DNA from: Verrucomicrobiota bacterium
GTDB taxonomy: Bacteria > Verrucomicrobiota > Verrucomicrobiia > Limisphaerales > Palsa-1400
Assembly (NCBI GenBank): GCA_049510745.1
Contig: JBEKYR010000017.1
Span: 27,873-91,872 of the forward strand
Length of the DNA: 64,000 nt
Direction of reading: 5' to 3'
Shown one piece after another: positions 7,021 through 55,076 of this stretch; positions within the stretch are counted from its first letter, which is position 1; each line of letters starts with the position of its first letter. The position numbers and the translations under genes were made by a program. The notes below the pieces were generated by a model. It had not been told where the DNA came from. It did not search any database and saw only the letters and a list, made by a program, of their open reading frames with translations.

Positions 7021-10000
7021 ATGTCGCTGGAACTGATGCATGAAAAGCTGGGCTGGCCCTCGCCGAGCGAGGTTCGCAACCCGTCTGGCGAGGGCGCCCG
7101 CATCTTTGCGGAACTCGCTCATGCTAAAATTGGGACCGCGCTAACGGCGCGGGCTGGTACTCCGCCGCTAAAGGTGGGTGTTTTGGTGCGGAACTCATGT
7201 TCGACGGAAACGGAATCGCCGCTCGCCGTTGTCGCGGAATTTCAGGGCCACGCAAATGATCAGACACTACGAGAGCTTCATAGATTGGCGTGGAATTTTT
7301 CACATGCCCCGACTGTCGTCACTATTGAGCCAGACCAGTTGCGCGTCTGGACGTGTTGCGAACCGCCGGAATCGGATCGTTTCCTGACCGACTATATCGT
7401 TCACGAGGTTTCCGTGTCTGACTTGGGAAAAGCTCGCCAGAGCGAGGAAACAAAGCGAGCCGCACAAGTGCTGCATTGGGCAAATTTGGTTTCGGGCCAG
7501 TTTTTTCGCGACCAACCGCTGCGCTTCTGCCGGGATAAGCGTGCTGACCAGATGCTTCTCGACAACTTACGGCATGTGCGAGACGTCCTGCAAAAAGCCG
7601 GTCTGACCAACGATGACATCTGTCATGACCTCCTCGCGCGGGTCATTTTCGTGCAGTTTCTTTTCGACCGCAAAGACTCCTCTGGCAACTCCGCATTGAA
7701 CGCGAACAAATTGGCCAGTCTCCGCGAAACAAAGGTTCTTAAGGAACAGCATGAAGACTTTGCCAGCATTCTCGGCAACTACGATGATACCTATGAGTTG
7801 TTTGACTGGCTGAATGAACGATTCAACGGTGACTTGTTCCCCGGGAAAGGTGACACTAAACACGAACGCGAGCGCGCCTGGCTGGTGGAGAAAAACCACG
7901 TCAAACCGCGACATTTGGAAAAGCTTCGTGATTTTGTCAAAGGTGATTTGGACATGCCCAAGGATCAAGCGTGTCTATGGCCGATGTATTCGTTCGATAC
8001 AATTCCGTTGGAATTCATCAGCAGCATCTATGAAGCGTTCGTGACAGAACGCGCTCGAAGCGAAGGCATCTATTATACCCCTCCCCATTTGGTTGATTTC
8101 ATCCTCGACCGTGTGCTACCATGGGGTGGCGACCAGTGGGACTTGAAGGTCCTCGACCCAGCATGCGGCTCCGGGATTTTTTTGGTCAAAGCATTTCAAC
8201 GATTAATTCATCGCTGGAAAAACTCACACCCGAAAGAAAACATCCGTGCCGAAACGCTTCGCGGTCTTTTGGAAAAGAATCTATTCGGCGTTGATAAAGA
8301 CCCGCATGCTGTTCGGGTCGCGTCGTTCAGTCTCTACCTAGCTATGTGCGACGAGATTGACCCGAAACACTATTGGACGCAGGTCCAATTCCCTGCCATG
8401 CGACAACGGCGGTTGATAAACGCCGACTTCTTTGAGGAAACACACCAAGGCTTTCGCACAAAGAATGACGCTGCCACGTATGATCTCGTCATTGGAAACG
8501 CACCGTGGGGCGAGGAGTTGTTGACTGAGGCAGCGAGAGAATGGGCGAACGAGGAAACGCGAAAATGGCCGGTCGCGAATAAGGGCATCGGCACCCTATT
8601 TTTGCCAAAAGCGGCAGCGCTGACGAAACCTAGCGGATGTGTCTCAATGATTCAATCCGCGAGTTCACTCCTGTTCAATCGAAGCAGACCAGCTTGCGAG
8701 TTTCGGAAAAAGTTTTTCACGACGTTGCGGGTCGAAGAAGTCGTGAATTTGTCTGCCTTGCGATTCAAAGTGTTTAATCAGAAGACGCGCTCAACTCAGA
8801 AATCTGTCGCGCCTTCGTGTATCATCACATTTTCTCCGGAAGAAGCCTCCAAGGAGTGGAACGAATACTTTGCTTACATCAGCCCAAAGCTAGCCGAGGA
8901 TTTTGCCGAGGAGTTCGATATTCTAATCGAACCGATCGACGTCAAGCGAATGCAAATTGGGGATGCGTCCACTGATCCCGATATTTGGAGTGCCTTAATG
9001 TGGGGACAACCGCGGGATTGGCGTGTTGTGCGACGGCTGCGATTAGAATCTAATCTGGCCAAGTTGGAGGAAGATAATTGCGTTGCCTCGAAAGAAGGAA
9101 TTATTCGAGGCAAGAATCCAAAGCGACAGAAGGAATACACATGGTTGCTTCATCAACCGATAATCGAAACGGATACATTTCCTGGCGAATCGCTGGTATC
9201 AATCGAGGCAAAAGCCCTGCCCAAAAATGACAATCCAATCGCCGAACGGCCTCGCAAACCTGAAACGTTCAAAACGCCGCAATTGTTGATCAAACAGGGC
9301 TGGTCGGTCGATTCACGGCGTTTTCAAGCGCGGTTGGTTATTCCTGATGGCCTTGGTCGAGGGGTGATTTGTTCTCAGAGTTATCTTTCCATCAGAAGCC
9401 TCACTGCTGCTGAGGATGTGCTGCATGCAGCGTGTCTGAGCTGCAACAGTATATTGGCTGTCTACTTCATGCTTTTGACCAGCGGGCGATTTGCATCTTA
9501 TAGACCGGAAGCTCTTGCTGGCGAAATTCCGCGCATCCCCGTGCCGGCGCCTCAAAAGGGAATGCTCGATGGCATTCGAACTGTAGAGGAAATAGACAAT
9601 AGGATCCGTGAAGCATTCAATCTCAAAGATGCAGAATGGGTTCTCATCAAGGACCTGTTTGATGTTACGCTTGCAGATTTCAAAGGAGACGAGAATTCTC
9701 TCGGGCGTCGCCGTACACGACGCAGGGTGGGAGTGGGCGAAGAGCCTGATTTGCGTCGTTATTGCGAATACTTCATCCGTGTTCTGAAGGCTGGGTTCGG
9801 AGCAGATAAAGGAATCAGCGCAACGATTTTCCACGAAAACAGCAGATTGCCCTATCGCCTTGTCGCTTTTTATCTAAACAAAACGGCAAGCGAGCCGATT
9901 CGCATCAAGCTTCTTAATGCTCCAGAACTTTTAAGGGAACTGGCGATCTTGAACGCGACTTGGCTTGCTCAAAAGAAAACCAGAAATGGAAGCATTTACA

Positions 10001-10176
10001 GCCAGCGTGTCGCTCGAATCTACGACGAGAGCAACGGAACTCCGACGATCTACATTGTGAAACCAGACGCCTATCGTTACTGGACGCGCAGTATGGGGTT
10101 GCATGATGCGGATGAAGTTGCAGCCGAGTTGGGTCACTGGCATACGGAAGGTCAACGAGCAACAGCGCAAAAATGA
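7021..10176 (+). CDS. Large N6-adenine DNA methyltransferase with TRD (type IIG-like architecture), paralogue 1
   Basis: FNGDLF, IPLEFISSIYE, YYTPPHLVDFILD, motif I VLDPACGSGIFL, motif IV GNAPW; gamma-class order. Confidence 0.9.
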   Translation: MSLELMHEKLGWPSPSEVRNPSGEGARIFAELAHAKIGTALTARAGTPPLKVGVLVRNSCSTETESPLAVVAEFQGHANDQTLRELHRLAWNFSHAPTVVTIEPDQLRVWTCCEPPESDRFLTDYIVHEVSVSDLGKARQSEETKRAAQVLHWANLVSGQFFRDQPLRFCRDKRADQMLLDNLRHVRDVLQKAGLTNDDICHDLLARVIFVQFLFDRKDSSGNSALNANKLASLRETKVLKEQHEDFASILGNYDDTYELFDWLNERFNGDLFPGKGDTKHERERAWLVEKNHVKPRHLEKLRDFVKGDLDMPKDQACLWPMYSFDTIPLEFISSIYEAFVTERARSEGIYYTPPHLVDFILDRVLPWGGDQWDLKVLDPACGSGIFLVKAFQRLIHRWKNSHPKENIRAETLRGLLEKNLFGVDKDPHAVRVASFSLYLAMCDEIDPKHYWTQVQFPAMRQRRLINADFFEETHQGFRTKNDAATYDLVIGNAPWGEELLTEAAREWANEETRKWPVANKGIGTLFLPKAAALTKPSGCVSMIQSASSLLFNRSRPACEFRKKFFTTLRVEEVVNLSALRFKVFNQKTRSTQKSVAPSCIITFSPEEASKEWNEYFAYISPKLAEDFAEEFDILIEPIDVKRMQIGDASTDPDIWSALMWGQPRDWRVVRRLRLESNLAKLEEDNCVASKEGIIRGKNPKRQKEYTWLLHQPIIETDTFPGESLVSIEAKALPKNDNPIAERPRKPETFKTPQLLIKQGWSVDSRRFQARLVIPDGLGRGVICSQSYLSIRSLTAAEDVLHAACLSCNSILAVYFMLLTSGRFASYRPEALAGEIPRIPVPAPQKGMLDGIRTVEEIDNRIREAFNLKDAEWVLIKDLFDVTLADFKGDENSLGRRRTRRRVGVGEEPDLRRYCEYFIRVLKAGFGADKGISATIFHENSRLPYRLVAFYLNKTASEPIRIKLLNAPELLRELAILNATWLAQKKTRNGSIYSQRVARIYDESNGTPTIYIVKPDAYRYWTRSMGLHDADEVAAELGHWHTEGQRATAQK

Positions 10177-10850
10177 GTGCGAATGAAAAAAGCCCGGAGG
10201 TTTCACATACCGACGTGATTCCAGCGAGTTTTGTGAGCTTGGCTGGTAGTTGGTGTCGCGATCAGTCCGCGATACTCCTTGGTTTCGTATGGGCTGCTTA
10301 CGACCAACTGATACCGGACACATCCAGAATTGACAGCCGTGATTTGGAGCGAAGCATCACGCAATTGTTGGAAGCCCGTATCCGCAGGGCCATGTCCGGT
10401 GACGAGCCTTTTTACATTCAGCACGGGCCGTATGAACGTGAGACGATGAAACCGCCGCCCGCCCAACCACCCCAATACGATTTGGCTTTCGTGCTAAACG
10501 CAAATGAACGTGTCATGTGGCCTCTTGAGGCAAAAGTTGTCGAAAAGCCCGCCGCTGTCGTTGAGTATGCCAACGAGATCCAACAACAGTTTCTCACCTG
10601 TCGGTATGCACCATTTTGTGGCGAAGGAGCCATGCTCGGATATTTGCTTTCCGGAACATCTGCGGATACATTCAACAACATCGCAGTAAAGATATCATGC
10701 AAACTTGAAAACCATCCCAGCTTTACCACACGGTCACACAAAACCTCCCGCCATCGCCGCCAGGTTCCTGTTGGTAAGACGTATCCACCCGATTTTTTGT
10801 GCCACCATCTGATTCTTGAATTATTGGAGGTAAAAAGGCATCGAAATTGA
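10173..10850 (+). CDS. PD-(D/E)xK nuclease-like protein, paralogue 1
   Basis: ATGA overlap with the MTase; LERS...QYDLAFV...WPLEAK motif; clearly homologous to 54399-55076. Confidence 0.75.
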   Translation: MSANEKSPEVSHTDVIPASFVSLAGSWCRDQSAILLGFVWAAYDQLIPDTSRIDSRDLERSITQLLEARIRRAMSGDEPFYIQHGPYERETMKPPPAQPPQYDLAFVLNANERVMWPLEAKVVEKPAAVVEYANEIQQQFLTCRYAPFCGEGAMLGYLLSGTSADTFNNIAVKISCKLENHPSFTTRSHKTSRHRRQVPVGKTYPPDFLCHHLILELLEVKRHRN

Positions 10851-10858
10851 CTGAGATT

Positions 10859-10891
10859 CACGAGGGTTCGATTCCCTTCACCCGCTCCAAC
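10859..10891 (+). repeat. attR-like duplicate of the tRNA-Gly 3' end
   Basis: Identical to 6666-6698. Confidence 0.95.
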
Positions 10892-10961
10892 GCTGCGCCC
10901 GTATGCAACCTGAGACTTGGCCGGCGTCATCGGGACAGGTCACCAACCCACAGGGACGAGT

Positions 10962-11186
10962 ATGTATGTCATGTTTGCGACGGTGGCATGGGCCGCCTTT
11001 TGGGGCGGCGCCATCTGGCTGTGGATGCTGGATGGGGCGAAGATTTCGCTGATTTTTATCGCGCTGTGGTTGTTGGGTTGGTTCGGCTTTCCGAGGCTGC
11101 ATTGGTCCGGAGCCGCTTTCCTGGCCTTTGACTGCGTCCTGGCCGTCCTTCTTTTGCTCATCGGAAAATACAAGTCAATGGTCTGA
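10962..11186 (+). CDS. Small integral membrane protein
   Basis: 74-aa ORF MYVMFATVAW... made almost entirely of hydrophobic helices; host-like codon usage. Confidence 0.6.
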   Translation: MYVMFATVAWAAFWGGAIWLWMLDGAKISLIFIALWLLGWFGFPRLHWSGAAFLAFDCVLAVLLLLIGKYKSMV

Positions 11187-11273
11187 AATGACGCCGCGAC
11201 CCGATGGTGAACACGGCGTTGAAGTCATCTGCGGCTGGATTTCAGGGCGGGGTTCCGCTAGGCTGGCCTGGCT

Positions 11274-12029
11274 GTGGAAAGGATTCTGGCAACGGCGCTC
11301 GGGCAGGATGTGAGCCAATTGGCAGCGCAGGAGAAACAACTCCTGCTCTCGCGCTTGTTGGCGCGCTTCGCCCACGAGGTCCGCAACCCGCTCAGTTCGC
11401 TCGACATCCACGTGCAGTTGCTGGAGGAGGACCTGGCCCAGGCCGCCCCACAGACGCGGGAGAGAACCGCCAGCCGCCTGGAAATCATCCATGGCGAACT
11501 GCATCGGCTGGAGAATATCGTCAAACATTTCCTCAGCCTGGCCGGGCCGTCGTCCCTGGATTTGCACCCGGTCACAGCGGCCAAAGTGATCGGCCACGTC
11601 TGCGAGTTGCTCCGCCCGGAAGCGGCGGCGCGCGGCATCGACATCGTGATGAAGTTGCCGGACGGCTTGCCGCCGGTCAGCGCGGATTCGGTGCAGCTCA
11701 CGCAGGCGCTGGTGAATCTGGTCATTAACGCCATGCAAGCGGTCGGGCGCGATGGCCGGGTGGAGGTGAGCGCGGGAACGGACAGGCGGGCCGGGACGTT
11801 GTCCATCGAGGTGCGCGACACCGGGCCGGGGATTCCCGCGGACAAGCAATCGGCCATCTTCGAGCCGTTTTTTTCGACCAAGGACGAGGGCAGCGGTTTG
11901 GGTTTGTGGATTGTGCAGCAAATCATCACGGCGCATGGCGGCGGGGTCGAGGCCTCGAACGCGCCCGAAGGCGGGGCGGTGTTTGTCATGCATCTGCCGC
12001 TGCGGAAGGCGGAGGCTGAGAATGGTTAA
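11274..12029 (+). CDS. Histidine kinase (HisKA + HATPase only, no sensor domain)
   Basis: H-box FAHEVRNPL, N-box NLVINAMQA, DTGPGI, FFSTK, GSGLGL; an in-frame stop just upstream blocks N-terminal extension. Confidence 0.9.
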   Translation: MERILATALGQDVSQLAAQEKQLLLSRLLARFAHEVRNPLSSLDIHVQLLEEDLAQAAPQTRERTASRLEIIHGELHRLENIVKHFLSLAGPSSLDLHPVTAAKVIGHVCELLRPEAAARGIDIVMKLPDGLPPVSADSVQLTQALVNLVINAMQAVGRDGRVEVSAGTDRRAGTLSIEVRDTGPGIPADKQSAIFEPFFSTKDEGSGLGLWIVQQIITAHGGGVEASNAPEGGAVFVMHLPLRKAEAENG

Positions 12030-13416
12030 ATCGAGAGTCAACATTTTGGTGGTGGATGACGAGCGGGGCCTGTGCGCGGGCATCCAGGAGGCGCTCAAAC
12101 GCGAGGGCTACTCGGTCGATACGGCCAACGACGCCCGCTCGGCCCTCCAGTTGATGAGCGAGCGCCTCTATAACCTCGTCCTGACCGACGTGAAGATGCC
12201 CGACATGAGCGGGCTGCAATTGCTCAAGGAAGCCAAGCAAAAGAGCCGCGACACGGTGTTCCTGCTGATGACGGCTTACGGCACGGTCGAGAGCGCGGTC
12301 GAGGCGATGAAGGAGGACGCCTACGATTATTTGTCGAAACCGCTCGACATGCGGCGGTTGCGGGCCTTGGTGCAGAAGGCGCTGGAGTTTCAGGCGGTGG
12401 TGGCGGAAAACAATGAGTTGCGGCTGCGGGTGCAAAAGCGCTCGGAGCCGGGTCTGCTGGTGGGCGAGAGCGAGATGATGCGCAAAGTGACGCAACTGGC
12501 GGACGAATTGGCGCGCAGCGATGTCACGGTGTTGATCGAAGGGGAAAGCGGGACGGGCAAGGAAATTGTGGCGCGGTCCATTCACTTGAAGAGCGCGCGG
12601 GCGGACAAGCCGTTTATCTCCGTCAATTGCGCGGCGCTGGCGGAACAGTTGCTCGAAGCGGAGTTGTTCGGCCACGTGAAAGGGGCCTTCACGGGGGCGG
12701 TGGCGGACAAGCCGGGGCGCTTCCAACTGGCCGACGGGGGCACGCTGTTCCTGGACGAAATCGGGGACCTCTCGGCCAAGGGACAAGGCGACCTGCTGCG
12801 CGTGCTGGAGGACGGGACGTTCCGCATGGTGGGCGGAACGAAACTAATCCGCGTCAACGTGCGCATCGTGGCGGCGACAAACAAGAAGCTGCAGGAAGTG
12901 GTGGCGGCGGGGCGGTTCCGCGAAGACCTCTGGTATCGTTTGCAGGTTGTTCCCATTTCGATTCCGCCGCTGCGCGAACACGCCGAAGACATTCCGCTGC
13001 TGGCGGAATGTTTCCTGGAACAGTTCACCGCCAAACATAAACGGCGGCGCAAAAAACTGTCCGGGGAAGCGATGCAGCTTTGCCAGCGGTACCCCTGGCC
13101 CGGCAACGTGCGGCAAGTGCGCAACGTCATGGAGCGATTGGTGCTGACCTGCCGCGAGGGCACGATTGAGGTGAAGGATTTGCCGGATTTTCTCCGCGAG
13201 CACGACCAAAGCGCCACGACGTTCTCGCTTCGCCCCGGCATGTCGCTGGCGGAAGTGGAGAAGCTGGTCATCCGGCAAACGCTCACGCATCTGACGGCCA
13301 ATCGAGAGGAGGCGGCCAAAGTGCTGGGCATCAGCCGCCGCTCGCTGCAATACAAGCTCAAGCAATACGGGTTGGTCGAGGAACCGCGGTCCGGCGGGAC
13401 CGATGAAGCCGGGTGA
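12022..13416 (+). CDS. Sigma54-dependent response regulator (NtrC family)
   Basis: REC domain (LVVDD, DVKMP), GESGTGKE, ELFGHVKGAFTGA, FLDEIG, WPGNVR, C-terminal Fis HTH. Confidence 0.95.
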   Translation: MVKSRVNILVVDDERGLCAGIQEALKREGYSVDTANDARSALQLMSERLYNLVLTDVKMPDMSGLQLLKEAKQKSRDTVFLLMTAYGTVESAVEAMKEDAYDYLSKPLDMRRLRALVQKALEFQAVVAENNELRLRVQKRSEPGLLVGESEMMRKVTQLADELARSDVTVLIEGESGTGKEIVARSIHLKSARADKPFISVNCAALAEQLLEAELFGHVKGAFTGAVADKPGRFQLADGGTLFLDEIGDLSAKGQGDLLRVLEDGTFRMVGGTKLIRVNVRIVAATNKKLQEVVAAGRFREDLWYRLQVVPISIPPLREHAEDIPLLAECFLEQFTAKHKRRRKKLSGEAMQLCQRYPWPGNVRQVRNVMERLVLTCREGTIEVKDLPDFLREHDQSATTFSLRPGMSLAEVEKLVIRQTLTHLTANREEAAKVLGISRRSLQYKLKQYGLVEEPRSGGTDEAG

Positions 13417-13437
13417 TTGCACAGGATGGCGGGAGAC

Positions 13438-13454
13438 GGTGCAAAGAATGCACC
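13438..13454. promoter_or_regulatory. Candidate enhancer (UAS) palindrome for the NtrC-family activator
   Basis: GGTGCA-aagaa-TGCACC perfect inverted repeat about 100 bp upstream of a -24/-12 promoter. Confidence 0.55.
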
Positions 13455-13551
13455 AAAGGGGCGCTGGAGTCGGCGCTGCTCGCGCGAGGGCGGTTGCGAT
13501 AAGAAGCTAACCACAGTTCCAGCAAGGGGTTGCAGCACCGGCGTGATTCCG

Positions 13552-13567
13552 CGGCACGGCCCTTGCA
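13552..13567 (+). promoter_or_regulatory. Sigma54 (-24/-12) promoter
   Basis: cGGCAC-GGCCC-TTGCA with exact GG-N10-GC spacing, immediately upstream of the operon and downstream of a sigma54 activator gene. Confidence 0.8.
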
Positions 13568-13579
13568 TACTGGAGCGGC

Positions 13580-13975
13580 ATGAAACAGACCATGGACCGA
13601 TTGTTCGCGCTGCAAAAGCTCCAGTTGCAAACCAAAGCTCTGTCTCTCGAGGACGAAGCGGAAATCCTGAAGTTGCGTGATAAAGTGCCCGCGCCCATCC
13701 TCGCCCACTTCGATCGGCTCATCGCGCGCGGCAAGAAAGGCGTGGCCCTGGCCCGGCACGGCGTGTGTGGCGAGTGTCATTTGCGGATCAGCTCGGGGAC
13801 GCTGGCCAGCCTGGCTTACACGAACGAGATACACATCTGCGACAACTGCGGCCGCTATCTCTTTCTGGCAGAGAATGAACCACCCGGCTTGGCCGAACCG
13901 CCGCCGCCAAGCAAAGCCCCCGCGAAAGCGCGCGCCAAAGGGACCCGGAAAAAGGCGGCCTTGCATGCCGCCTAA
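13580..13975 (+). CDS. C4-type zinc-ribbon protein (DUF164/zf-RING_7-like, lacking the long coiled coil)
   Basis: GVCGECHLRI...ICDNCGRYL. Confidence 0.8.
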   Translation: MKQTMDRLFALQKLQLQTKALSLEDEAEILKLRDKVPAPILAHFDRLIARGKKGVALARHGVCGECHLRISSGTLASLAYTNEIHICDNCGRYLFLAENEPPGLAEPPPPSKAPAKARAKGTRKKAALHAA

Positions 13976-14000
13976 CGCCATCGCCAGTCCGAACACTGCC

Positions 14001-14498
14001 ATGACCTTGGCCGACTTCACCAGTCCGGGGCTGATCGTGCCGCACTTGCGCGGCCAGGATGCAGCCGGGGTGATCCAGGAACTGAGCCAGGCGATGCAGC
14101 GGGAAAAGCGCGTGCCGGACTTGCTCCCGTTTTACCACGCGGCGCTGAACCGGGAATTTCTCGTCAGCAGCGACATGGAGGCGGGCATGGCCTTTCCGCA
14201 CGCGCGCCTGCCGGGATTGAAGGAGCTTTCTTTCGCGCTGGGCCGCAGCCCGGTGCCGCTGGGTTGGACGGCCAAGGCCACCCGCTCAGTCTGGCTGGTC
14301 TTTCTGCTGGCGGTTCCCGCGACCGACTCGACCCAATATCTGCTGCTCATTTCCGGTCTGGCGCGCCTGTCACAAGACAGCCGGCTGATGGAAACGCTCC
14401 GCTCCGCGCCAGACGCCATCCAGATGTTTGAGGTGCTGCAACAAGTCCCCCTGCGGTCCGACGCGAAATCCGATTTGTTCAAGAAGGCCGTCAGTTGA
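14001..14498 (+). CDS. PTS EIIA domain protein (PtsN/fructose-mannitol type)
   Basis: LNREFLVSSDMEAGMAFPHAR with the phospho-acceptor His; alternative start at 13965. Confidence 0.85.
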   Translation: MTLADFTSPGLIVPHLRGQDAAGVIQELSQAMQREKRVPDLLPFYHAALNREFLVSSDMEAGMAFPHARLPGLKELSFALGRSPVPLGWTAKATRSVWLVFLLAVPATDSTQYLLLISGLARLSQDSRLMETLRSAPDAIQMFEVLQQVPLRSDAKSDLFKKAVS

Positions 14499-14523
14499 CC
14501 GGGGCGACGCCAGATTTGCTGAA

Positions 14524-17513: not shown

Positions 17514-17515
17514 CC

Positions 17516-18184: not shown

Positions 18185-18188
18185 CCTC

Positions 18189-39497: not shown

Positions 39498-39552
39498 CAC
39501 CCGCCTCGCCGAAGTTGACACCCGCCCCGGGTCAACTTAAGTTAAACCCGAC

Positions 39553-41702: not shown

Positions 41703-41840
41703 CATTGAAAATTGGTCATTGAAAATCGAAAATTGGTCATTGAACAGCAGAGCGTCTGGCCCCCCGCGAAGCCCGTTGTCAATCAGGGAGCGATGAACCC
41801 CAATTACCAATGACAAATTTTCAATCTTCAATTTTCAATG
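41703..41840. repeat. Inverted pair of heptamer tandem arrays (CATTGAA/AATTGGT ... ACCAATG/TTCAATT)
   Basis: Six units at 41703-41744 and five complementary units at 41806-41840. Confidence 0.8.
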
Positions 41841-41940
41841 TTCCTCGAATCGAGAACGGCAAGTCAACAAAGCCGAGAGAGTCGGCAATTCGGTCCAGGG
41901 CAGGCTTGTAAACGGGGCCGGAGCACGGTAATGTTGAAGA

Positions 41941-42531: not shown

Positions 42532-42581
42532 GAATTTTCCCGATTGCCTGCCCGGCTGGGAGAACTTAGACTGGCGGCCGC

Positions 42582-46082: not shown

Positions 46083-46654
46083 CTATTCTCTGTCTCCTTT
46101 GTGCCGGGAACGCCAAAAAGGTTCAGTTCGCCCGGCAGAAGGTCCCGCAACTGGGCGATGGCATAGTGGAGCCTGGATTTGACCGTGCCTTTGGAGATTC
46201 CAAGGTGCGCGGCGATCTGGCAGATTTTCATATCCTCGTAGAAACGGAGGACGACGACCTCGCGGTGCGGGGCGGTCAGGCGGCCAAGGGCGTCGGTTAG
46301 CGCGGTCGAAGCGGCGTCCGTATCCAGGCGGCTCGGCCCCTCTTCGGGCGCTGGAATTTCCTCTTCGGTCAGGTTGGGGTCGCTGACCAGCCGTTTGCGG
46401 TCACGGTGGTAGTGGCGGGTGAGGTTGAGCAGGATGGCGTGGAGCCAGGTGTAGAGGGCCGCTCCGCCCCGGAACCGGTGGGCTGATTTCCAGGCTTGAA
46501 GGAAAGTTTCCTGGACGAGGTCCTGGGCTTCGGTTTCGTTGCCGCAGAGCAGGAAGGCCGAGCGCAGCAACCGCTGCCCGTAGGAATCGACCAGTTCGCG
46601 CGCGGCGGCGGGGTCCTGGCCGCGCAGCGCGGAGATGACCTGCTCTTCGTCCAT
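46079..46654 (-). CDS. ECF RNA polymerase sigma factor
   Basis: AQDLVQETF, YTWLHAI, REVVVLR, IAAHLGISKGTVKSRLHYA. Confidence 0.94.
   Translation of the reverse strand: MDEEQVISALRGQDPAAARELVDSYGQRLLRSAFLLCGNETEAQDLVQETFLQAWKSAHRFRGGAALYTWLHAILLNLTRHYHRDRKRLVSDPNLTEEEIPAPEEGPSRLDTDAASTALTDALGRLTAPHREVVVLRFYEDMKICQIAAHLGISKGTVKSRLHYAIAQLRDLLPGELNLFGVPGTKETENR
46095..46125 (-). promoter_or_regulatory. Candidate ECF promoter, internal copy ahead of the anti-sigma gene
   Basis: TGAACCTTT-N11-GGCACAAAGGA on the minus strand. Confidence 0.65.
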
Positions 46655-46657
46655 TTA

Positions 46658-46688
46658 TCCTTTGTGCCACTGCCGGGAGAAAGGTTCA
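46658..46688 (-). promoter_or_regulatory. Candidate ECF autoregulatory promoter
   Basis: TGAACCTTT-N11-GGCACAAAGGA, with both boxes and spacing identical to 46095-46125. Confidence 0.65.
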
Positions 46689-46748
46689 AGGGCCGCCCCG
46701 AAAATGAGCGTTTGACGGGCCGAAGTTAGGTGTTATGTTTCTACACGT

Positions 46749-47051
46749 ATGAGCGCTAGAAAAATTGAAAATAGTCCGCTCGGACTATCTCCCCGCCCCA
46801 CCCAATGTCTGACGCTTCCCGCCAATTCCGTCCGTATTCGGAAAAATGGCATTGAATTTCACAACGACGTCCCCCTTTCCCCCTGGACCGAGATGACGGT
46901 CACGCTGCAAGGTCCAGGCGACGCCAAGAAGGTCAATTTCACGGGCGTCATCGTCGAGTGCGCCGGCAACCGGGCGGAGGGGTACGCCATCTCGATGCTC
47001 TTCACCCACGTTTCGCGGCAGTCACAAGCGCGCTTGCTGGCCTATTCCTGA
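46749..47051 (+). CDS. Small PilZ-like beta-barrel protein
   Basis: NGIEF...MTVTL...FTGVIVEC...YAISMLF pattern; upstream of pilT. Confidence 0.55.
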   Translation: MSARKIENSPLGLSPRPTQCLTLPANSVRIRKNGIEFHNDVPLSPWTEMTVTLQGPGDAKKVNFTGVIVECAGNRAEGYAISMLFTHVSRQSQARLLAYS

Positions 47052-47089
47052 CTGGATTCCTTCCGGGCTGAGGCTGTAGAGTGCGGGCG

Positions 47090-48178
47090 ATGGAAACGTT
47101 TCGCCGCATTTTGACCGCCGCCATTGAGGGAGGGGCGTCCGATGTTCATTTGAAGATCGGCGCACCCATCGCCTTTCGCATCAACCGCAAGCTCGTCAAC
47201 GTCGAAGGGCCGATGCCCTCCGAGCAATGGATGAACCTGGTGATCGACAACATCGTGCCGCGCCACATCAAACAAGTCCTGGAGACCCGCCACGAATGCG
47301 ATTTTTCCTATTTCATGCCGGAGGTGGGCCGGTTCCGCACCAATTGTTTCTATCAGCGCGGCCAGCCGTGTCTGGCCCTGCGCTACGTCAAGACGCAGGT
47401 GCCCAGCTTCGAGGAGTTGGGGCTGCTTCCGGTCTTGCGGTCCATCGCCGAATCGCCCCGCGGCATCGTGCTGCTGGCCGGCTCGACCGGTTGCGGCAAA
47501 TCGACCACCCTGGCCGCCATGATCGAGCACATCAACGCCACCAGCCGCAAGCACATTATCACCTTGGAAGACCCCATTGAATATGTCTTTGAAGACAACC
47601 AATCGATCATCGAGCAGCGCGAGATCGGCTTGGACACTCCTTCCTTTGACGAGGGGCTGCGCCATGTCCTGCGCCAGGACCCGAACGTGATCATGATCGG
47701 GGAAATGCGCGACGCCACCAGTTTTTCGGCCGCGATGAGCGCCGCCGACACCGGGCACCTGGTGCTCTCGACCCTGCACACGACCAACGCCTCGCAATCG
47801 GTCGGGCGCATTTTGGACTTTTTCAAGCCGGACGAACGGGAGCAAATCCGCCGGCAATTGGCCGCCACCTTGCAGGCCGTTATCTGTCAGCGGATGGTTC
47901 CGACCATCGCCGGCGGCATGACCCCCGCCATGGAACTCATGATCAACTCCCCCACCGTGCGCAAACTCATCGAGGAGAACCGCCTGGAGAAACTTCCCGC
48001 CGCCATTGAAACGGGGGGCGAAGAGGGGATGCTCAATTTCAATCAGTCTCTTCTCCAACTGGTCAAGGACGCCAAAGTTTCGCAGAAGGACGCGCTGGCC
48101 AAAGCGACCAACGCCCAGGCGCTGGAAATGAATTTCCAGGGAATCTTTCTCACCGAGGGCAAGCGCATCCTTGGGTGA
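47090..48178 (+). CDS. pilT: Type IV pilus retraction ATPase PilT/PilU
   Basis: ASDVHL, GSTGCGKSTT, ITLEDPIEY, LRQDPNVIMIGEMRD, TGHLVLSTLH. Confidence 0.93.
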   Translation: METFRRILTAAIEGGASDVHLKIGAPIAFRINRKLVNVEGPMPSEQWMNLVIDNIVPRHIKQVLETRHECDFSYFMPEVGRFRTNCFYQRGQPCLALRYVKTQVPSFEELGLLPVLRSIAESPRGIVLLAGSTGCGKSTTLAAMIEHINATSRKHIITLEDPIEYVFEDNQSIIEQREIGLDTPSFDEGLRHVLRQDPNVIMIGEMRDATSFSAAMSAADTGHLVLSTLHTTNASQSVGRILDFFKPDEREQIRRQLAATLQAVICQRMVPTIAGGMTPAMELMINSPTVRKLIEENRLEKLPAAIETGGEEGMLNFNQSLLQLVKDAKVSQKDALAKATNAQALEMNFQGIFLTEGKRILG

Positions 48179-48238
48179 TTTGTCCAAAGATTTGCCTTGT
48201 CGCCGGGCGCTTTCTTTGCCACAAGTCAGGTCGAACAC

Positions 48239-49453
48239 ATGTTGAACCCTGAACTTGTCCGCATGAAACTGAGCCGCAAACTCCCCTTCGCTGCCGGCCT
48301 TGCCGCTGCGCTCTTGTCCGCCATGGTCTGGCCGCCCCAGTCGCTTTTTGGCCTGGGCGTCGCGGTGCCTGACCAGGATGCCTTCGCCACCGCCCGCGGC
48401 AACGCCTTTGTCGCCACGGCCGATGACCCGGCCGCCGTGTACTACAACCCGGCGGGCATTTCGCAACTGACCGGCATGAACCTGTCGCTGGGCGCTTATG
48501 GCATTGTCTATGGGTCCACCTACAAAAGCGGCGGCGCCGACATTGACAGCAAAACGCAGTGGGCAGCCCTGCCCCAGGTCTTCACCACCTACAGTCTTCC
48601 GCAATATCACCTCACACTCGGCTTGGGCACCTATTCCCCTTATGGCTTGAGGATGGAATGGCCGATGAACTCGCCCTTCCTCGCCGCCGGTGAGACGGGC
48701 GAGATTCATTATTACACCGTCAACCCGGTTGTGGCCTGGCAGGTCTGTCCCTCCGTCTCCATCGCCGCCGGGCCAACGCTCAATTACTCCCAGGCCGATC
48801 TGAAAGAGTACCCCGGCTTTGTCAATCACTTTCGCGGGCGCGACACGGACGTGGGCTACAACATCGGCCTGCTCTGGCGCCCGGCCGAACAGCACTCCGT
48901 CGGCGTCACCTACCGCAGCGCCACGGACATGAATTATTCCGGCCATGCCACCCTGCCCGTGCCGCCCTTCACCGCCAACATCAGCGACACGGCCAATTAT
49001 CATTTCCCCCAAACCCTCGCTTTCGGCTACTCCTTCCGCCCCAACGCAAAATGGAACTTTGAGGCCGATGCCGACTGGACCGACTGGACCACTCTCAAAG
49101 TCTTGACGATCAGCCCGCTCAATGAGACGCTGCCGTTCAACTGGGACCAGAGTTGGATGCTCGACTTCGGGGCGACTCGCTATTTGGGCGACGGCTGGCG
49201 CATCAGCGGCGGTTACATGTACAGCATGAACTCGGTCCCTTCCTCGACTTTTAATCCGCTGATTCCCGATTCGGACCGCCATCTTTTCAGCGTCGGCGTC
49301 GGAAAAAAGTACAAGCATTTCAGTTGGGACGCGGCGTATCAACTGTCGTGGGGCCCGTCGCGCTCGGTCAGCGGCGACGCCTTCCCACCAGCCAACGGCA
49401 GCTATGAGTTCCTCAGCCATGCAATCAGCCTCAACTTCGGCTACCACTTCTAG
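48239..49453 (+). CDS. FadL/OmpP1 outer-membrane transport protein
   Basis: ARGNAFVATADDPAAVYYNPAG, SPYGL, C-terminal YHF. Confidence 0.9.
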   Translation: MLNPELVRMKLSRKLPFAAGLAAALLSAMVWPPQSLFGLGVAVPDQDAFATARGNAFVATADDPAAVYYNPAGISQLTGMNLSLGAYGIVYGSTYKSGGADIDSKTQWAALPQVFTTYSLPQYHLTLGLGTYSPYGLRMEWPMNSPFLAAGETGEIHYYTVNPVVAWQVCPSVSIAAGPTLNYSQADLKEYPGFVNHFRGRDTDVGYNIGLLWRPAEQHSVGVTYRSATDMNYSGHATLPVPPFTANISDTANYHFPQTLAFGYSFRPNAKWNFEADADWTDWTTLKVLTISPLNETLPFNWDQSWMLDFGATRYLGDGWRISGGYMYSMNSVPSSTFNPLIPDSDRHLFSVGVGKKYKHFSWDAAYQLSWGPSRSVSGDAFPPANGSYEFLSHAISLNFGYHF

Positions 49454-50693
49454 CGCCGGAAACGCTCCGGCGGAGAAACCGCGCGGGACCTTGCTCATTG
49501 TGGATGATGAGGAAGGACCGAGGCAATCGCTGCGCGTTGTTTTCAAAGAGGATTACAACCTGCTCCTGGCCTCCAACGGCCACGATGCCGTCGAGTTGGC
49601 CAAAAATCATAAAATCAACGCCGCCGTCCTGGACATCCGCATGACCGGCATGAGCGGGACCGAGGTCCTCGAGAAGCTCAAAAGCATCCAGCCTTCCATT
49701 GAAGTCATCATGCTCACCGCTTACGAGACGGTCGATACGGTCCGCCAGGCCTTGCGCCTGGGCGCCTGCGATTACCTCAACAAACCCTTTGATGTCCCCA
49801 CCATCCGCAAAGCCGTCGCCACCGCCATGGAACGGCATTCCTTCGCCGACGAAATCCGGTCCAACAACGAGAAACTCACCGCTCTCCAGGCCGAATTGCA
49901 CGACCAGCGCCTGCAAGAGGAGATCACCCGCACCCGCGGCGAGATTTATGCCAGCATCATCCACGACATCAACGGCCCCTTGACCATCATTTCCGGTTTC
50001 ATTCAAATCATCAACCAGCGCATGGGCGATTCCAAGCGGCTGGAAGGGGAGGACATGGAGATGGTCAAGGACCGGCTCAGGCGCATTACCCGCCAGGTCA
50101 GCAACTGCATCGAAATTTCCCACCGCTACCTCAGCTTCATGCGCCAGCAGCCCGCCGGCCCGGCCCGCACCAACGTCAACCAAATCCTGGACGATTTGCG
50201 CGAACTCCTCAACGTGCATCCCAGCAAGGGCGCCAACACCCTCAAAATTCACACCCTGGCCCAGGAAGTTGAACTCCAGATGAACGGGACCGATCTCATC
50301 CAAATCCTGCTCAATCTGGCCATCAACGCCCTCCAATGCTCCCCCGAACCGCACCTAGTCGATATCGCCGGCCAGATGCTCAACACCGGGGCGGATTTCT
50401 CCCATCTCTACGAGGGGCCGGCGGACCGCATTCTCTACGGGCAAGGCTTCTCCAACACGCCCCCGCTGTTGCTGCTCTCCGTGCGGGACGACGGCCCTGG
50501 AATCCCGCCTGATGTCCTGCCGAAGATTTTTCAGCCTTACTTCACCACCAAGGCGCCCGGCAAAGGCACCGGTTTGGGATTGGCCATCGTCCACCGCCTG
50601 CTCAAAGAGGCCCGCGGCTGTATGCACGTCCATTCCAAGCCCGGCGAAGGCACCTCCTTCAACATCTACCTGCCCGCGACAGTCAAACGCTGA
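49404..50693 (+). CDS. Hybrid response regulator-histidine kinase
   Basis: LIVDDE, DIRM; IIHDINGPL, NLAINA, DDGPGI, FTTK, GTGLGL. Confidence 0.92.
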   Translation: MSSSAMQSASTSATTSSAGNAPAEKPRGTLLIVDDEEGPRQSLRVVFKEDYNLLLASNGHDAVELAKNHKINAAVLDIRMTGMSGTEVLEKLKSIQPSIEVIMLTAYETVDTVRQALRLGACDYLNKPFDVPTIRKAVATAMERHSFADEIRSNNEKLTALQAELHDQRLQEEITRTRGEIYASIIHDINGPLTIISGFIQIINQRMGDSKRLEGEDMEMVKDRLRRITRQVSNCIEISHRYLSFMRQQPAGPARTNVNQILDDLRELLNVHPSKGANTLKIHTLAQEVELQMNGTDLIQILLNLAINALQCSPEPHLVDIAGQMLNTGADFSHLYEGPADRILYGQGFSNTPPLLLLSVRDDGPGIPPDVLPKIFQPYFTTKAPGKGTGLGLAIVHRLLKEARGCMHVHSKPGEGTSFNIYLPATVKR

Positions 50694-51050
50694 ACGCCGC
50701 GCTCCCGGCCCCCGAATCCGTCGCGATTAGGAAAGATTTTCCGCTGGCGTCTTATTCATGGGCTGGTCTTGTCTCAAGGCTCCGTGGCGACCAGCGGGCT
50801 GTCCCCGTGCGGCATTTCGGCTCAGACGGAACATGCGCGGATTCTATGCCGGCCCGGCCCGCGCCGCCAACGCCCAATTTGTGCAAAGCGCCTTGGAATA
50901 ACTGCACTTGGGCGCCGGCGGAACCCATATTCGGTAGGGACGCCGGTGCCCCGCGTCCACTGACCTCTCAGCCGCCGGCGGGCTTCGTTCCGCGGCAAGT
51001 TTCACCGCACGGTGAAGACAGATGCAGACTCATCGGGACAATGGGAGAGA

Positions 51051-51132
51051 CGGGTTTCCCAAGCCTGAGACGAGGCTTCGATTCCCCAGGTCCCCCATAG
51101 CGCGAAGCGCGACGGCGGATTCACCCGCTTCA
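51051..51132 (+). pseudogene. Degenerate tRNA-Gly(CCC) 3' half interrupted by a 33-bp insert (att-like remnant)
   Basis: Anticodon arm CGGGT-TTCCCAA-GCCTG, then AGAC. Removing 51087-51119 gives GAGGCTTCGATTCCCTTCACCCGCTTCA versus GAGGGTTCGATTCCCTTCACCCGCTCCA in the intact tRNA (2 mismatches in 28). Confidence 0.8.
51091..51119. repeat. REP-like palindrome inserted in the tRNA remnant
   Basis: TCCCCCATAGCGCGAAGCGCGACGGCGGA, near-identical to 24300-24329. Confidence 0.7.
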
Positions 51133-51137
51133 TTGAT

Positions 51138-51180
51138 TATCAACGACTTACGAGCCATTGCGGTAAAACCGCAGTAAAAC
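51138..51180 (+). promoter_or_regulatory. IHF consensus plus candidate integrase arm-type direct repeats
   Basis: TATCAACGACTTA matches WATCAANNNNTTR; followed by GCGGTAAAAC-c-GCAGTAAAAC. Confidence 0.55.
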
Positions 51181-51287
51181 GGACCGAAACCACCTTCGCT
51201 CTTTGACGGTTGTCGAATTCAAATCTCGTCGTAACCTGACGCCGCACTTGCGCTATCGCTATCGAATCGGTTAGTTTTCGCTCGCCC

Positions 51288-54200
51288 ATGCTGCTGGACC
51301 AAGCATCTCTTCAATTAGGCTGGCCTGATCGCCGGCAGGTACTCAAGCCTGCTGGCGGGGGCAATCGCGTATTGGCCAATTTGGCGCAGGAAAAAATTGG
51401 GCTTCCGCTAAAGCGTCAAGGTGCGGTACTTGAAGTCGGCGTTTTGTCTCCATCACCTGAATCAGCTAACACCGAAGCGCCACTCGCAATTATTTGTGAA
51501 TTCAGCCAGCGCCCGCCGCCACAGCTTCTTGAATTGGCTCACAAACTGGCTTGGAACTTTTGCCGGACGCGCTTGCTGATCACTGCTGAACGCGACCGGC
51601 TACGCGCTTGGACCTGTTGCAAACCGCCAACAGCAGATTTTAGATCAAAGCTTGTTTTCGACGACTCCGGTTCGGTCAACGGACAGGCGGATTTTCCATC
51701 TCTGTCGCAGACCGCTGCCAGCGCACTTCATTGGGTAAACCTTGTTTCAGGCGAGTTTTTCCGCCGGCGGACAAATCAATTCCGCCCAGACGAACGCGCC
51801 GACGCCTTGCTTTTGGCGAACCTTCGTTTTATCCGAACGGCCTTACTGGAAGCCAACTTGCCGAAGGATGTGTGTCATGATCTCTTGGCGCGGCTGATCT
51901 TCGTCCAGTTCCTCTTTCACCGGAAAGATAAAAGCGGGAAACCATTTCTTGATGAGGCCCTTATGCAAGGTCGTTTGCAGGGACGGTTGTCGCGCTCCCA
52001 CACCGGCCTTGAATCTATTTTAACCGATCGTGACGACACCTATGCTCTCTTTAGGTGGTTAAACGGAAAGTTCAATGGCGATCTGTTTCCCGGAAAAGGA
52101 GGCTCTGCCGCTGCCAAAGAGCGCGAATGGCAAGAAGAGAAGAATCAGGTCGGCAAGAAACATCTGCAGTTGTTGGCCGATTTCGTGTCGGGCCGGATGC
52201 AAATGGAGAGGCACCAGCCAACCCTTTGGCGGGAGTATTCATTTGACACGATTCCGCTCGAATTCATTAGCAGTGTCTATGAGCAATTCGTCAGCGAGGA
52301 CGCTGACCGGCAAAAAGCATACTATACGCCTGCACATTTAGTGGATTTCGTTCTGGACAAGGTAATCCCATGGGACGAAGACGACTGGAACTTGAGAATA
52401 TTAGACCCGGCATGCGGATCGGGAATTTTTTTGGTGAAGGCTTTTCAGCGACTTGTCCATCGTTGGAAACGTGCAAATCGCGGTAAATCACCAAGGGTGT
52501 CGGACCTAAAGCCGATACTTGAGAACAATTTGTTTGGTGTGGATACGAACCATGACGCAGTCCGCGTTGCTTCCTTTAGCCTTTTCCTGGCGATCTGTGA
52601 CGCAATTGATCCTCGGTACTACTGGAAACAGGTTGTGTTTCCTAGGCTGCGTGGGGTTACGATGCTGAAAGCCGACTTCTTCGACGAAGCGGCCGAAGGC
52701 ATCCGGACTCGGGTTGATAGGAGTTCGTTCGATATCGTTATTGGAAATCCACCTTGGGGCGATAATACGACCACGAAAAACAGCACGTTCGCCGAGAAAT
52801 GGGCAAAGAAGAACGCATGGCCCGTTGCAAATGGCGACATTGGTCCATTGTTTCTTGCCAAGGCGGCGGTACTCGCGAAGGAAGCAGGGCAAATTTCTTT
52901 GTTGCAGCCAGCGACGGTTCTGCTCTTCAACAAGTCGCCCCGAGCTCTGAAGTTGCGGACCAAGCTGTTTTTATCTTTGGATGTCGAGGAGATTGCAAAT
53001 CTTTCGGCGCTTCGTTTTGGACTGTTTTCCAAAGCCGTTGGTCCGACATGCATTATCACGGCGCGCAATCGATTACCGCGACCCGAAACAATGATCGAAT
53101 ACGTTGTGCCGAAAGCTTCCAAATCGAATGATGACGAATACCGTGTTGTGATCGAACCACAAGACATCAACCTGGTCCGACTGGACGAAGCTCGGTCTGA
53201 CCCCCTTATATGGTCAGCTTTTTCTTGGGGCGGACCGCGGGATCTAGCTCTTTTGCACCGCCTAGGGCGGTTTGAAACTTTGGAAAGATTGAAATCCCAT
53301 AAAAGGATTGAAACGCGGGAGGGTATTATCCGGGGTGACCGGCAGAAGCGCCAACAGAAAATCCTGGAAAAGCGGATGTTGGAGCAGCCGGATTTCCCTG
53401 AAGAAACGTTTCTCTATTTGGATCCAGAGCGGCTTGGACGGAATGGAGATTCGCAGACTCATTCGGCAGACTCAACTGACTTCACGGCTTTCCATCCACC
53501 CCAGCTTATTTTGAAACAGAGCTGGCGGGTGTCAAAAAAGCGATTCCAAGCAGCGGTCAATGTTGGCAATGAAGGAATTTTTTGTACGCAGAGCTACCTG
53601 ACGATCCATGCGAATCCCGAGTATGAGCACGTTTTGGATGCTGCGTGTCTTAGCTACAACAGCAAACTTGCAGTGTATTTCATGCTGCTGTCCAGCGGAC
53701 GCTTTGCGGCTTACAGGCAAGAGTCACTTGCTGAGGATTTGCTACGCGTTCCGCTGCCGGAGGCGACGAAAGGTTTACTCGAAGGACTCAACAATCTGGA
53801 TGATGTGGATAACCGCGTCCGAACGCTCTTCCGTTTCAAACCATCTGAGTGGGCTTTGGTTGAGGACCTGTTTGGCATCACCTTGCCGGATTTCAAGGGC
53901 GGACCGAATTCGCCTGGTCGGCAACAATCCATTCGCAAGCCGACGACCGCGAGAATATCGACTGACCCCGACCTACACCGTTATGCTGAGCAATTCATCC
54001 GTGTCTTGAATGCGGGCTTTGGCGATGAAAAAACGATTTGTGCTACCATCTTTCAAGAACCGCTGTCCGAACGGTTGCCAGTCCGGTTGATTGCGATTCA
54101 TCTAGATTGGCCGGGAAGAAGGTCCGTGGGAATTGAACCAATGAAGTTGGAGATGTTGCTGCAAAGGCTTGCCAAACTTTACGCTGATTGCATGAAAGCG

Positions 54201-54389
54201 CCCGAAAAGAGACCTGGGTTTTACTTTGAACGGAGTGCTCGCATCTATGCCCCACATCAGACTTCTAGTGGCAACGTTCCCACGGTATTCATAATCAAAC
54301 CTGATCAGCGCCGCCAGTGGACCCGTTCAATGGCTATGCGCGATGCTGACGAAGTCGCCGCCGAAATCATGCGTGCGAAATGGAAATAA
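51288..54389 (+). CDS. Large N6-adenine DNA methyltransferase with TRD (type IIG-like architecture), paralogue 2
   Basis: FNGDLFPGKG, YYTPAHLVDFVLD, ILDPACGSGIFL, GNPPW; collinear with 7021-10176. Confidence 0.92.
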   Translation: MLLDQASLQLGWPDRRQVLKPAGGGNRVLANLAQEKIGLPLKRQGAVLEVGVLSPSPESANTEAPLAIICEFSQRPPPQLLELAHKLAWNFCRTRLLITAERDRLRAWTCCKPPTADFRSKLVFDDSGSVNGQADFPSLSQTAASALHWVNLVSGEFFRRRTNQFRPDERADALLLANLRFIRTALLEANLPKDVCHDLLARLIFVQFLFHRKDKSGKPFLDEALMQGRLQGRLSRSHTGLESILTDRDDTYALFRWLNGKFNGDLFPGKGGSAAAKEREWQEEKNQVGKKHLQLLADFVSGRMQMERHQPTLWREYSFDTIPLEFISSVYEQFVSEDADRQKAYYTPAHLVDFVLDKVIPWDEDDWNLRILDPACGSGIFLVKAFQRLVHRWKRANRGKSPRVSDLKPILENNLFGVDTNHDAVRVASFSLFLAICDAIDPRYYWKQVVFPRLRGVTMLKADFFDEAAEGIRTRVDRSSFDIVIGNPPWGDNTTTKNSTFAEKWAKKNAWPVANGDIGPLFLAKAAVLAKEAGQISLLQPATVLLFNKSPRALKLRTKLFLSLDVEEIANLSALRFGLFSKAVGPTCIITARNRLPRPETMIEYVVPKASKSNDDEYRVVIEPQDINLVRLDEARSDPLIWSAFSWGGPRDLALLHRLGRFETLERLKSHKRIETREGIIRGDRQKRQQKILEKRMLEQPDFPEETFLYLDPERLGRNGDSQTHSADSTDFTAFHPPQLILKQSWRVSKKRFQAAVNVGNEGIFCTQSYLTIHANPEYEHVLDAACLSYNSKLAVYFMLLSSGRFAAYRQESLAEDLLRVPLPEATKGLLEGLNNLDDVDNRVRTLFRFKPSEWALVEDLFGITLPDFKGGPNSPGRQQSIRKPTTARISTDPDLHRYAEQFIRVLNAGFGDEKTICATIFQEPLSERLPVRLIAIHLDWPGRRSVGIEPMKLEMLLQRLAKLYADCMKAPEKRPGFYFERSARIYAPHQTSSGNVPTVFIIKPDQRRQWTRSMAMRDADEVAAEIMRAKWK

Positions 54390-54398
54390 ACATCGCGC

Positions 54399-55076
54399 AT
54401 GAGGCGACGCCAAACAGTTAGCGAGCAACTTTGGCCGAAGGACGCATGCTTCAATTCGCTCAAAGCGTGGCCTGCCGATGCTGGCATTACGATCTTACGG
54501 CGCGTTTGGAGCGCTTATGACGATCTCGGCCGGGAGATATTGGCCAAAGTGGATTGGTCCGCGACGGAAGACGAAGTCGAAAGGAGTTTGACTGCCTATC
54601 ACAGCATTAAAATCCAAGAGTGGCAAACAGGCGACGAACCTTTCATCTTGCATCCGGAAATGCCCGAGTTCGAAACTCGCAAGCCCGCTCCCGCGCGGTC
54701 CAAGGCTTACGATTTCGGCTTCGTCATGCGCGGCGGTGATTACTCGATGGTCTGGCCTATCGAAGCCAAGGTTCTCAAGACGGATCGGAAATTGTCTGGT
54801 TATCTGCGCGATTTGGACGAAAAACTTCTGACGTGCAAGGCCGCGCCATTCTCGCACGAGGGTGCATTGATTGGATACCTGCTCTCAGGAAGCCCCAGCG
54901 TTGTGTTTGAGGGGATCGCTGCTCACATCGGTCAATTGTTATTCTCGCATCCCGTCTTTTCTGGGCGGAATCACCGCACTTCGACTCACAAACGCGATGT
55001 CCCGAGGGACAAGCCTTACCCGAAGGACTTTCTTTGCCATCATCTAGTGATGGAAACTAAACCCGTTATCAACTAA
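54399..55076 (+). CDS. PD-(D/E)xK nuclease-like protein, paralogue 2
   Basis: VERS...AYDFGFV...WPIEAK; same length (225 aa) and motifs as 10173-10850. Confidence 0.75.
   Translation: MRRRQTVSEQLWPKDACFNSLKAWPADAGITILRRVWSAYDDLGREILAKVDWSATEDEVERSLTAYHSIKIQEWQTGDEPFILHPEMPEFETRKPAPARSKAYDFGFVMRGGDYSMVWPIEAKVLKTDRKLSGYLRDLDEKLLTCKAAPFSHEGALIGYLLSGSPSVVFEGIAAHIGQLLFSHPVFSGRNHRTSTHKRDVPRDKPYPKDFLCHHLVMETKPVIN

Follow-up and report, generated by a model that had tools for sequence, protein, structure and literature searches.

A widespread two-gene module pairs a type IIG-like DNA methylase with a separate predicted PD-(D/E)xK nuclease

Restriction enzymes of types IIG and IIL (MmeI, DrdV, BpuSI and the Eco57I family) combine a gamma-class N6-methyladenine (m6A) methyltransferase (MTase) with a fused target recognition domain (TRD) in one chain, and MmeI-type enzymes recognize an asymmetric site of which one strand is methylated. 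Type III restriction-modification (R-M) systems consist of a beta-class MTase and an ATP-dependent helicase-nuclease. In these systems specificity rests with the MTase (Mod) by itself, and it is the MTase that recruits the restriction subunit (Res), a separate protein, as set out by Blow et al. (2016; PMC4752239). That paper also describes MTase/TRD proteins without a PD-ExK motif whose nuclease resides on a polypeptide of its own (AchA6III, OspHL35III and MexAMORF1192P), in three families that carry a fusion of a PLD nuclease with a translocase, a translocase combined with a GIY-YIG nuclease, or two translocases combined with an HNH nuclease, and calls these families only part of the diversity. 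A further large MTase with an integral TRD, which does not cleave DNA alone, is PglX/BrxX of the bacteriophage exclusion (BREX) systems, according to PMC12707154. Here we describe a gene pair that occurs twice in a 64,000-nucleotide stretch from a Verrucomicrobiota bacterium (GenBank assembly GCA_049510745.1, contig JBEKYR010000017.1, positions 27,873 to 91,872; referred to as the window) and that is set apart within this split IIG-like kind by the lack of a motor, by an unnamed PD-(D/E)xK nuclease and by an extra C-terminal domain in the methylase.

Both pairs are intact and share the same gene order. In copy 1 the genes for a large protein of 1051 amino acids and a small protein of 225 amino acids overlap by ATGA, and in copy 2 (1033 and 225 amino acids) they are 9 nucleotides apart (Table 1). 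The large proteins are 47% identical over the 1051 columns of their pairwise alignment, the small proteins 41% over 205 columns. When coordinates and lengths were re-derived, the four open reading frames (ORFs) lay where an earlier note on this sequence had put them, and all the motifs quoted there are present in the large- and small-protein alignments. No third copy of the small gene was found in the whole assembly (5.6 Mb, 85 contigs searched).

The large protein resembles type IIG/IIL enzymes in domain order and in its gamma-class MTase with fused TRD, but lacks a catalytic PD-ExK motif at the N terminus, carries an extra C-terminal part of about 160 amino acids and is accompanied by an obligate separate nuclease gene. 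With the systems of Blow et al. (2016) the module shares an MTase/TRD protein devoid of a nuclease motif and a nuclease on a separate polypeptide; in contrast to the three families described in that paper, there is no translocase, and a PD-(D/E)xK nuclease takes the place of PLD, GIY-YIG or HNH. Type III systems are similar in the division of labor proposed below, whereas here a gamma-class MTase stands beside a 225-residue nuclease without a motor. PglX/BrxX is a structural match (Z 17.6), yet neither pglZ nor brxC nor another BREX gene is conserved nearby, and the BREX and MADS models scored far under their cut-offs on the large protein (65 against 400 for BREX in NCBIfam).

The module is a real, widespread and tightly conserved unit. 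Linkage was followed in 160 fetched loci: 80 small-gene loci from GTDB genomes, the top-scoring among 115, and 80 large-gene loci from metagenomes, the top-scoring among at least 565 (41-100% identity). Among the former, 79 carry the large gene directly upstream and one lies at a contig end; they are spread over Verrucomicrobiota, Pseudomonadota, cyanobacteria, Planctomycetota, Acidobacteriota, Nitrospirota, Desulfobacterota and others. Among the latter, the small gene is present in 72 (one of these, L099, matches the window at 99.99% identity and is not independent of it), 7 end at a contig edge and in one a transposase interrupts the small gene. Start and stop lie at most 30 nucleotides apart in 148 of 151 pairs. 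Linkage also extends to distant members: when 7 of the 30 plasmid records matched by the N-terminal third of the large protein were opened, one close and all four distant full-length homologues (about 25% identity) carried the small gene, while two truncated fragments did not. A profile search of the host family gave 11 further small-gene loci, 9 of which have an abutting upstream large homologue; at the remaining two, one upstream ORF was missed by the profile and one is broken. The co-occurrence of the two families, to which the earlier note had pointed as a check, is thus seen in both directions and also at about 25% identity. Two plasmid records matched the small protein, and the large protein had no match among 50,697 phage records. 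At locus L087 (7282-8981) a transposase pair breaks the small gene after about 35 codons and leaves the large gene intact, the sole natural nuclease-minus case seen.

Apart from the small nuclease gene, only an optional helix-turn-helix (HTH) gene is conserved near the large gene, and therefore no HsdS with two TRDs, as in types I and IIB, belongs to the module. The neighbors of 80 loci revealed no conserved helicase or translocase cluster, HsdS or second MTase, and no such cluster with pglZ or brxC/pglY. A screen for ORFs combining Walker A and DExH-like motifs was positive in 10 of the 160 loci, at varying positions. The absence of helicase and HsdS, first suggested for the window, holds for the family as a lack of any conserved gene of this kind.

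As modelled (predicted local distance difference test, pLDDT, 84), the large protein shows the domain order of types IIG/IIL, namely N-terminal domain, helical domain, gamma MTase and TRD, since the model aligns over residues 30-889 to MmeI (Z 21.4, residues 175-880), DrdV (Z 18.4, residues 30-866) and BpuSI (Z 16.7, residues 55-889). Pfam assigns Eco57I and N6_Mtase, and the best PADLOC models are those for REase_MTase_IIG (E 5e-61, residues 87-815); the protein joins a gamma m6A MTase to a single TRD within one chain, as types IIG/IIL do. For residues 1-175 the nearest named Atlas clusters were MmeI_N (0.91, 131 of 256 features), which is a lead only. Residues 890-1051 are an addition to this layout and are also found in distant homologues that bear the small gene. 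Compared by profile, the two end domains of the large protein, N-terminal (7021-7536) and C-terminal (9688-10173), gave a hint of similarity, with a probability of 79% over 48 columns of shallow profiles.

Residue conservation was followed in 119 non-identical complete pairs built from the window and the 160 loci, leaving out L099, duplicates with an identical large protein, and ORFs that were broken or cut at an edge. Hardly any variation is seen in the MTase motifs DPxCGSG and N-x-P-W/F, with N493 and P495 kept in 119 of 119. The motif register of the N-terminal domain was derived from strand order, secondary structure and motif pattern. In this register the position of the PD aspartate is Gly in 118 sequences and Ser in one, so that the catalytic Asp is present in none, and the lysine of ExK (position 75) is Lys in only 4. 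Two intact IIG enzymes used for comparison show the canonical PD..LEAK and PD..VESK pattern, and the motif is missing in four distant members as well. To judge from these patterns, the nuclease domain of the large protein is catalytically dead. The original description of an N-terminal domain without ExK is correct for the lysine and extends to the PD aspartate, but an acidic residue is kept at the glutamate position (E or D at 73 in 110 of 119; A, N or Q in 9).

The small protein, which consists of one domain, models as a PD-(D/E)xK-fold nuclease (pLDDT 94). Its best structural matches are OkrAI (Z 8.4, root-mean-square deviation 4.0, 146 residues aligned), BglII (7.9), BstYI (7.0), McrC (6.8) and BamHI (6.5), and most of the top 50 belong to the restriction-endonuclease superfamily. 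The model has the alpha-beta-beta-beta-alpha-beta core with E...D...ExK that characterizes the PD-(D/E)xK superfamily, and this motif is kept in nine distant members that were aligned. E59, E88, D103, E119, K121, H194, R196 and H212 are invariant in all 119 pairs; the complete motif noted at first in the two window copies thus proves to be an intact catalytic set throughout, in a modelled restriction-endonuclease fold. Compared with the BamHI-family type IIP enzymes and McrC, which it resembles in fold at a deviation of about 4 Å, the small protein is only 5-10% identical and gives no sign of a specificity of its own. Searches of Pfam, NCBIfam and PADLOC with 109 members each gave scattered one- or two-member matches and no family, none was found in PHROGs, and no sequence in the PDB matched the family profile. 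Relatives are numerous: 1229 at the 90% level (123-394 amino acids searched) and 223 at the 50% level without a length limit, the best 150 of which are all shorter than 300 amino acids. The small protein would not simply be a detached IIG nuclease, because its profile shows no similarity to that of either end domain (N- or C-terminal) of its large partner; that origin was ruled out.

Specificity resides probably in the large protein, because the TRD varies independently of the nuclease. Within the large protein, identity is lowest in the TRD. Over the 119 pairs, which are not independent and for which correlations are descriptive numbers, identity of the small proteins follows that of the MTase, the helical domain and the N-terminal domain (Spearman 0.62-0.66; MTase 0.66, partial 0.24) and much less that of the TRD core (0.29, partial 0.06). 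In several pairs, nucleases are 82-96% identical with TRD cores of 30-44%; between L083 and L084 the identities are 95% (MTase), 96% (nuclease) and 44% (TRD), and between L006 and L010 they are 89%, 88% and 35%. The small-protein tree has 51 supported splits, of which 9 conflict with the tree of the N- or C-terminal domain, 12-14 with that of the helical or MTase domain and 26 with that of the TRD; the MTase tree conflicts with the TRD tree in 23 of 50 splits, as the nuclease tree does. These numbers fit TRD exchange under a constant nuclease, and the TRD as carrier of specificity, as first proposed, gains from them. The TRD cores of copies 1 and 2 are 34% identical, and these two copies probably differ in specificity.

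The same numbers bear on a simpler arrangement, an ordinary type II pair in which the small protein would be an independent type IIP-like enzyme and the large protein its oversized cognate methylase, comparable to AhdI-type systems. The BamHI-like folds (OkrAI, BglII, BstYI, BamHI) and the size of the small protein fit such an enzyme, and pairs of this kind are strictly linked, too. An independent sequence-specific nuclease is not expected, though, to stay nearly identical beside very different TRDs, nor should its tree show twice as many conflicts with that of the TRD as with those of the other domains, and we give this arrangement only a slim chance.

We think it reasonably probable that the large protein modifies one strand of an asymmetric site and brings in the small nuclease where such sites are unmethylated. 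The module would then be a two-subunit, ATP-independent R-M system with a type IIG/IIL enzyme as its ancestor. Its large protein would bind a short asymmetric site via its TRD and methylate one adenine, as suggested by its family and by the lack of a conserved second MTase; the small PD-(D/E)xK protein, with no specificity of its own that has to match the TRD, would be recruited by the large protein to unmethylated sites and cut nearby, with defence as the presumed outcome. Candidates for docking or oligomerization are the two terminal domains, the extra one at the C terminus and the dead one at the N terminus. A predicted complex of the small protein and two pieces of the large one (residues 1-345 and 846-1051) scored 0.74; a control with the N-terminal piece replaced still reached 0.65, and two controls with a replaced partner gave 0.00, and we draw no support from this prediction. 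We see an even chance that an undescribed, motor-free R-M layout exists in many phyla, in which a nuclease-dead IIG methylase offers a family-specific C-terminal domain as the docking place for a generic 25-kDa nuclease, retargeted by TRD exchange, and that annotation tools overlook the cutting subunit by taking the large gene for a complete IIG enzyme.

Strict linkage, translational coupling and a nuclease that is independent of the TRD would also be expected of a guard or addiction module, in which the large methylase keeps a non-specific toxin nuclease inactive until the methylase is lost or something such as a DNA-mimic protein blocks it, whereupon the cell dies; guards of the PrrC type offer an analogy, and the structural neighbors of the small protein include the signal-activated Card1, Can2 and NucC. 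The nuclease of the large protein appears dead in all homologues examined, so that no restriction activity is left to guard, and the single-domain small protein has no sensor domain. We regard a guard function as unlikely.

Several points weigh against recruitment of the small nuclease by the large protein. Low TRD identity need not mean changed specificity. The best folds for the small protein are self-sufficient type IIP enzymes, with moderate Z scores (at most 8.4), and Foldseek found nothing below E 0.001 for its model (best 0.029). Both sets of loci were taken from the best-scoring matches, and related genomes among the 160 are not independent. Finally, the N-terminal domain may hold a non-canonical active site, because polar residues are conserved there (K36 in 118 of 119, E65 in 101 and E/D73 in 110). 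Such a site would allow a two-nickase heterodimer like BtsI or BspD6I, the large protein nicking one strand via K36/E65/E73 and the small protein the other. Conservation of the three residues in the close family and the BspD6I small subunit among the structural matches (Z 5.8) are compatible with two nickases, but K36, E65 and E73 are not kept in four distant homologues and position 73 is occupied by A, N or Q in the nine sequences mentioned, which makes this arrangement improbable to us.

In PADLOC, the large-protein superfamily is already filed as plain IIG, because distant members match model PDLC03623 over nearly the whole length (two plasmid members do so); PDLC03603 and PDLC03623 match the family. 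The PADLOC check suggested for the pair was run: the large gene is scored as plain IIG and the small gene has no PADLOC family. No published description of the gene pair was found in the literature searched, which mostly excludes subscription papers, and REBASE may hold one; nor does such a pair appear in the available parts of PMC12707154, PMC6158711 and PMC13092281 (the last including its supplement). Of the idea of a candidate new split IIG system, the pair layout stands as not found described, but the notion of an IIG-like protein with a separate nuclease was already present in Blow et al. (2016; PMC4752239). If recruitment by the methylase is confirmed, the module would represent a minimal R-M layout, with shared TRD, separate nuclease and no ATP motor, whose logic lies between types IIG and III, and would correct genes which PADLOC scores as single-chain IIG enzymes. 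It would also assign a role to a numerous family of nucleases that has no name so far (1229 matches at the 90% level), provide a natural means of separating modification from restriction via subunit supply, and make a nuclease retargeted by TRD exchange useful for enzyme engineering. Two such pairs in one cell would reveal if the subunits are orthogonal or not.

Table 1. Positions in the window of the two gene pairs, their domains and the associated tRNA-Gly sequences.
Feature	Position	Strand	Basis
tRNA-Gly(TCC), insertion site of copy 1	6623..6696	+	ARAGORN; varied cargo behind tRNA in relatives
Left 33-nucleotide att-like direct repeat (tRNA 3' end)	6666..6698	+	100% identical to 10859-10891
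Large subunit, copy 1, IIG/IIL-like m6A MTase-TRD	7021..10176	+	Pfam Eco57I, N6_Mtase; PADLOC IIG; model aligned to MmeI, DrdV, BpuSI
N-terminal nuclease-like domain, residues 1-172, without catalytic Asp/Lys	7021..7536	+	G53 in 118/119, K75 in 4/119
Gamma-class MTase core, DPACGSG 379-385, NAPW 493-496	8056..8850	+	N493, P495 in 119/119
Variable TRD, residues 611-845	8851..9555	+	Least identical domain; varies independently
Extra C-terminal alpha/beta domain, residues 890-1051, end KP..WTRS...DAD	9688..10176	+	Outside MmeI/DrdV/BpuSI alignment
Small subunit, copy 1, predicted stand-alone PD-(D/E)xK-fold nuclease, E59/D103/E119/K121	10173..10850	+	Model; invariant residues
Right 33-nucleotide att-like repeat, closes islet	10859..10891	+	Exact repeat of tRNA 3' end
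Decayed tRNA-Gly(CCC)-like relic before copy 2	51027..51098	+	Aligns with tRNA-Gly(CCC) of this genome
Large subunit, copy 2, 1033 amino acids, NPPW	51288..54389	+	Pfam, PADLOC, alignment to copy 1
Small subunit, copy 2, 225 amino acids	54399..55076	+	Alignment to copy 1

The window genes around both pairs are housekeeping genes, and the lower G+C content first remarked upon was recovered: the four pair genes have 50-53%, the genome 60%, and at third codon positions the pair genes have 51-61% and four neighboring genes 78-82%. Copy 1 forms an islet of 4.2 kb between tRNA-Gly(TCC) and the closing repeat, with no integrase inside, and the cargo behind this tRNA differs in all five relatives inspected. 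Of the earlier statement that both pairs lie directly behind tRNA-Gly sequences, the part on copy 1 stands with an intact tRNA gene, but copy 2 follows only a decayed relic, in which 51051-51086 is identical to the tRNA-Gly(CCC) of the genome at 34 of 36 positions. This relic was called neither by ARAGORN nor by Rfam, and the repeat search of the window found no closing repeat for it. Across the genome the tRNA-Gly end (26-33 nucleotides) is present 12 times, in 3 cases as part of a whole tRNA gene and in 9 as a fragment away from a whole tRNA (sites at 6666-6698 and 10859-10891 of the window and on contigs C6, C10, C15, C20, C49, C50, C69 and C79), and several of the fragments have common downstream sequence. 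The repeat is thus not peculiar to this cassette, and the fragments are probably scars of many elements that target tRNA-Gly.

The two copies are best read as independent acquisitions, because a close orthologue of copy 2 alone exists elsewhere: the metagenomic locus L129 is 69% (large) and 78% (small) identical to copy 2 and 47% and 41% to copy 1, and its islet has an intact tRNA-Gly(CCC) and a closing repeat. Local duplication of the pair was ruled out, the copies being as distant as typical family members and L129 close to copy 2 only; of the proposed paralogous copies, what remains is two intact, diverged pairs. In the host family, 12 of 31 genomes match the small-protein profile, only two of them closely, this genome included, and neither same-genus genome matches. 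No sequence joint that skips the islet was found in four runs of contigs, an RNA run gave matching pieces only with many differences, and in the empty-site comparison the flanks of the insertion site lie on separate contigs in the relatives. Between the nuclease gene and the closing repeat of the L129 islet, a gene (L129:7819-8520) encodes a YTDGGCDPNPG motif; we take its product to be RNase H-like.

Upstream of the large gene, an HTH gene of about 96 codons is present in 24 of 80 and 14 of 80 loci of the two sets (e.g., L011:4571-4867). Its product has a conserved tail, KKPRG...GxFGGDxQ..L, and weak matches to HTH_31 and HTH_3 only; the gene overlaps the start of the large gene. A different protein of about 155 amino acids is encoded upstream of the distant plasmid members L161-L163. 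Directly after the pair, L078 (8736-12818), L109, L110 and L162 (9904 onward) carry a canonical single-chain IIG-like gene with intact PD..ExK, and type III Mod-like genes lie downstream in L009, L049 and L082. Within the window, an intergenic stretch of about 900 bp at 55084-55990 had no match in 12 relatives (E 1e-30) and contains modules repeated on many contigs, including the short repeats TTCACTGA and AAATCAAAC/AAATCAGAC. Further along, between gltX and the aconitase gene, lies an ORF of 117 amino acids (57506-57859), presumably for a four-helix-bundle protein resembling those of 23S rRNA intervening sequences or Avd.

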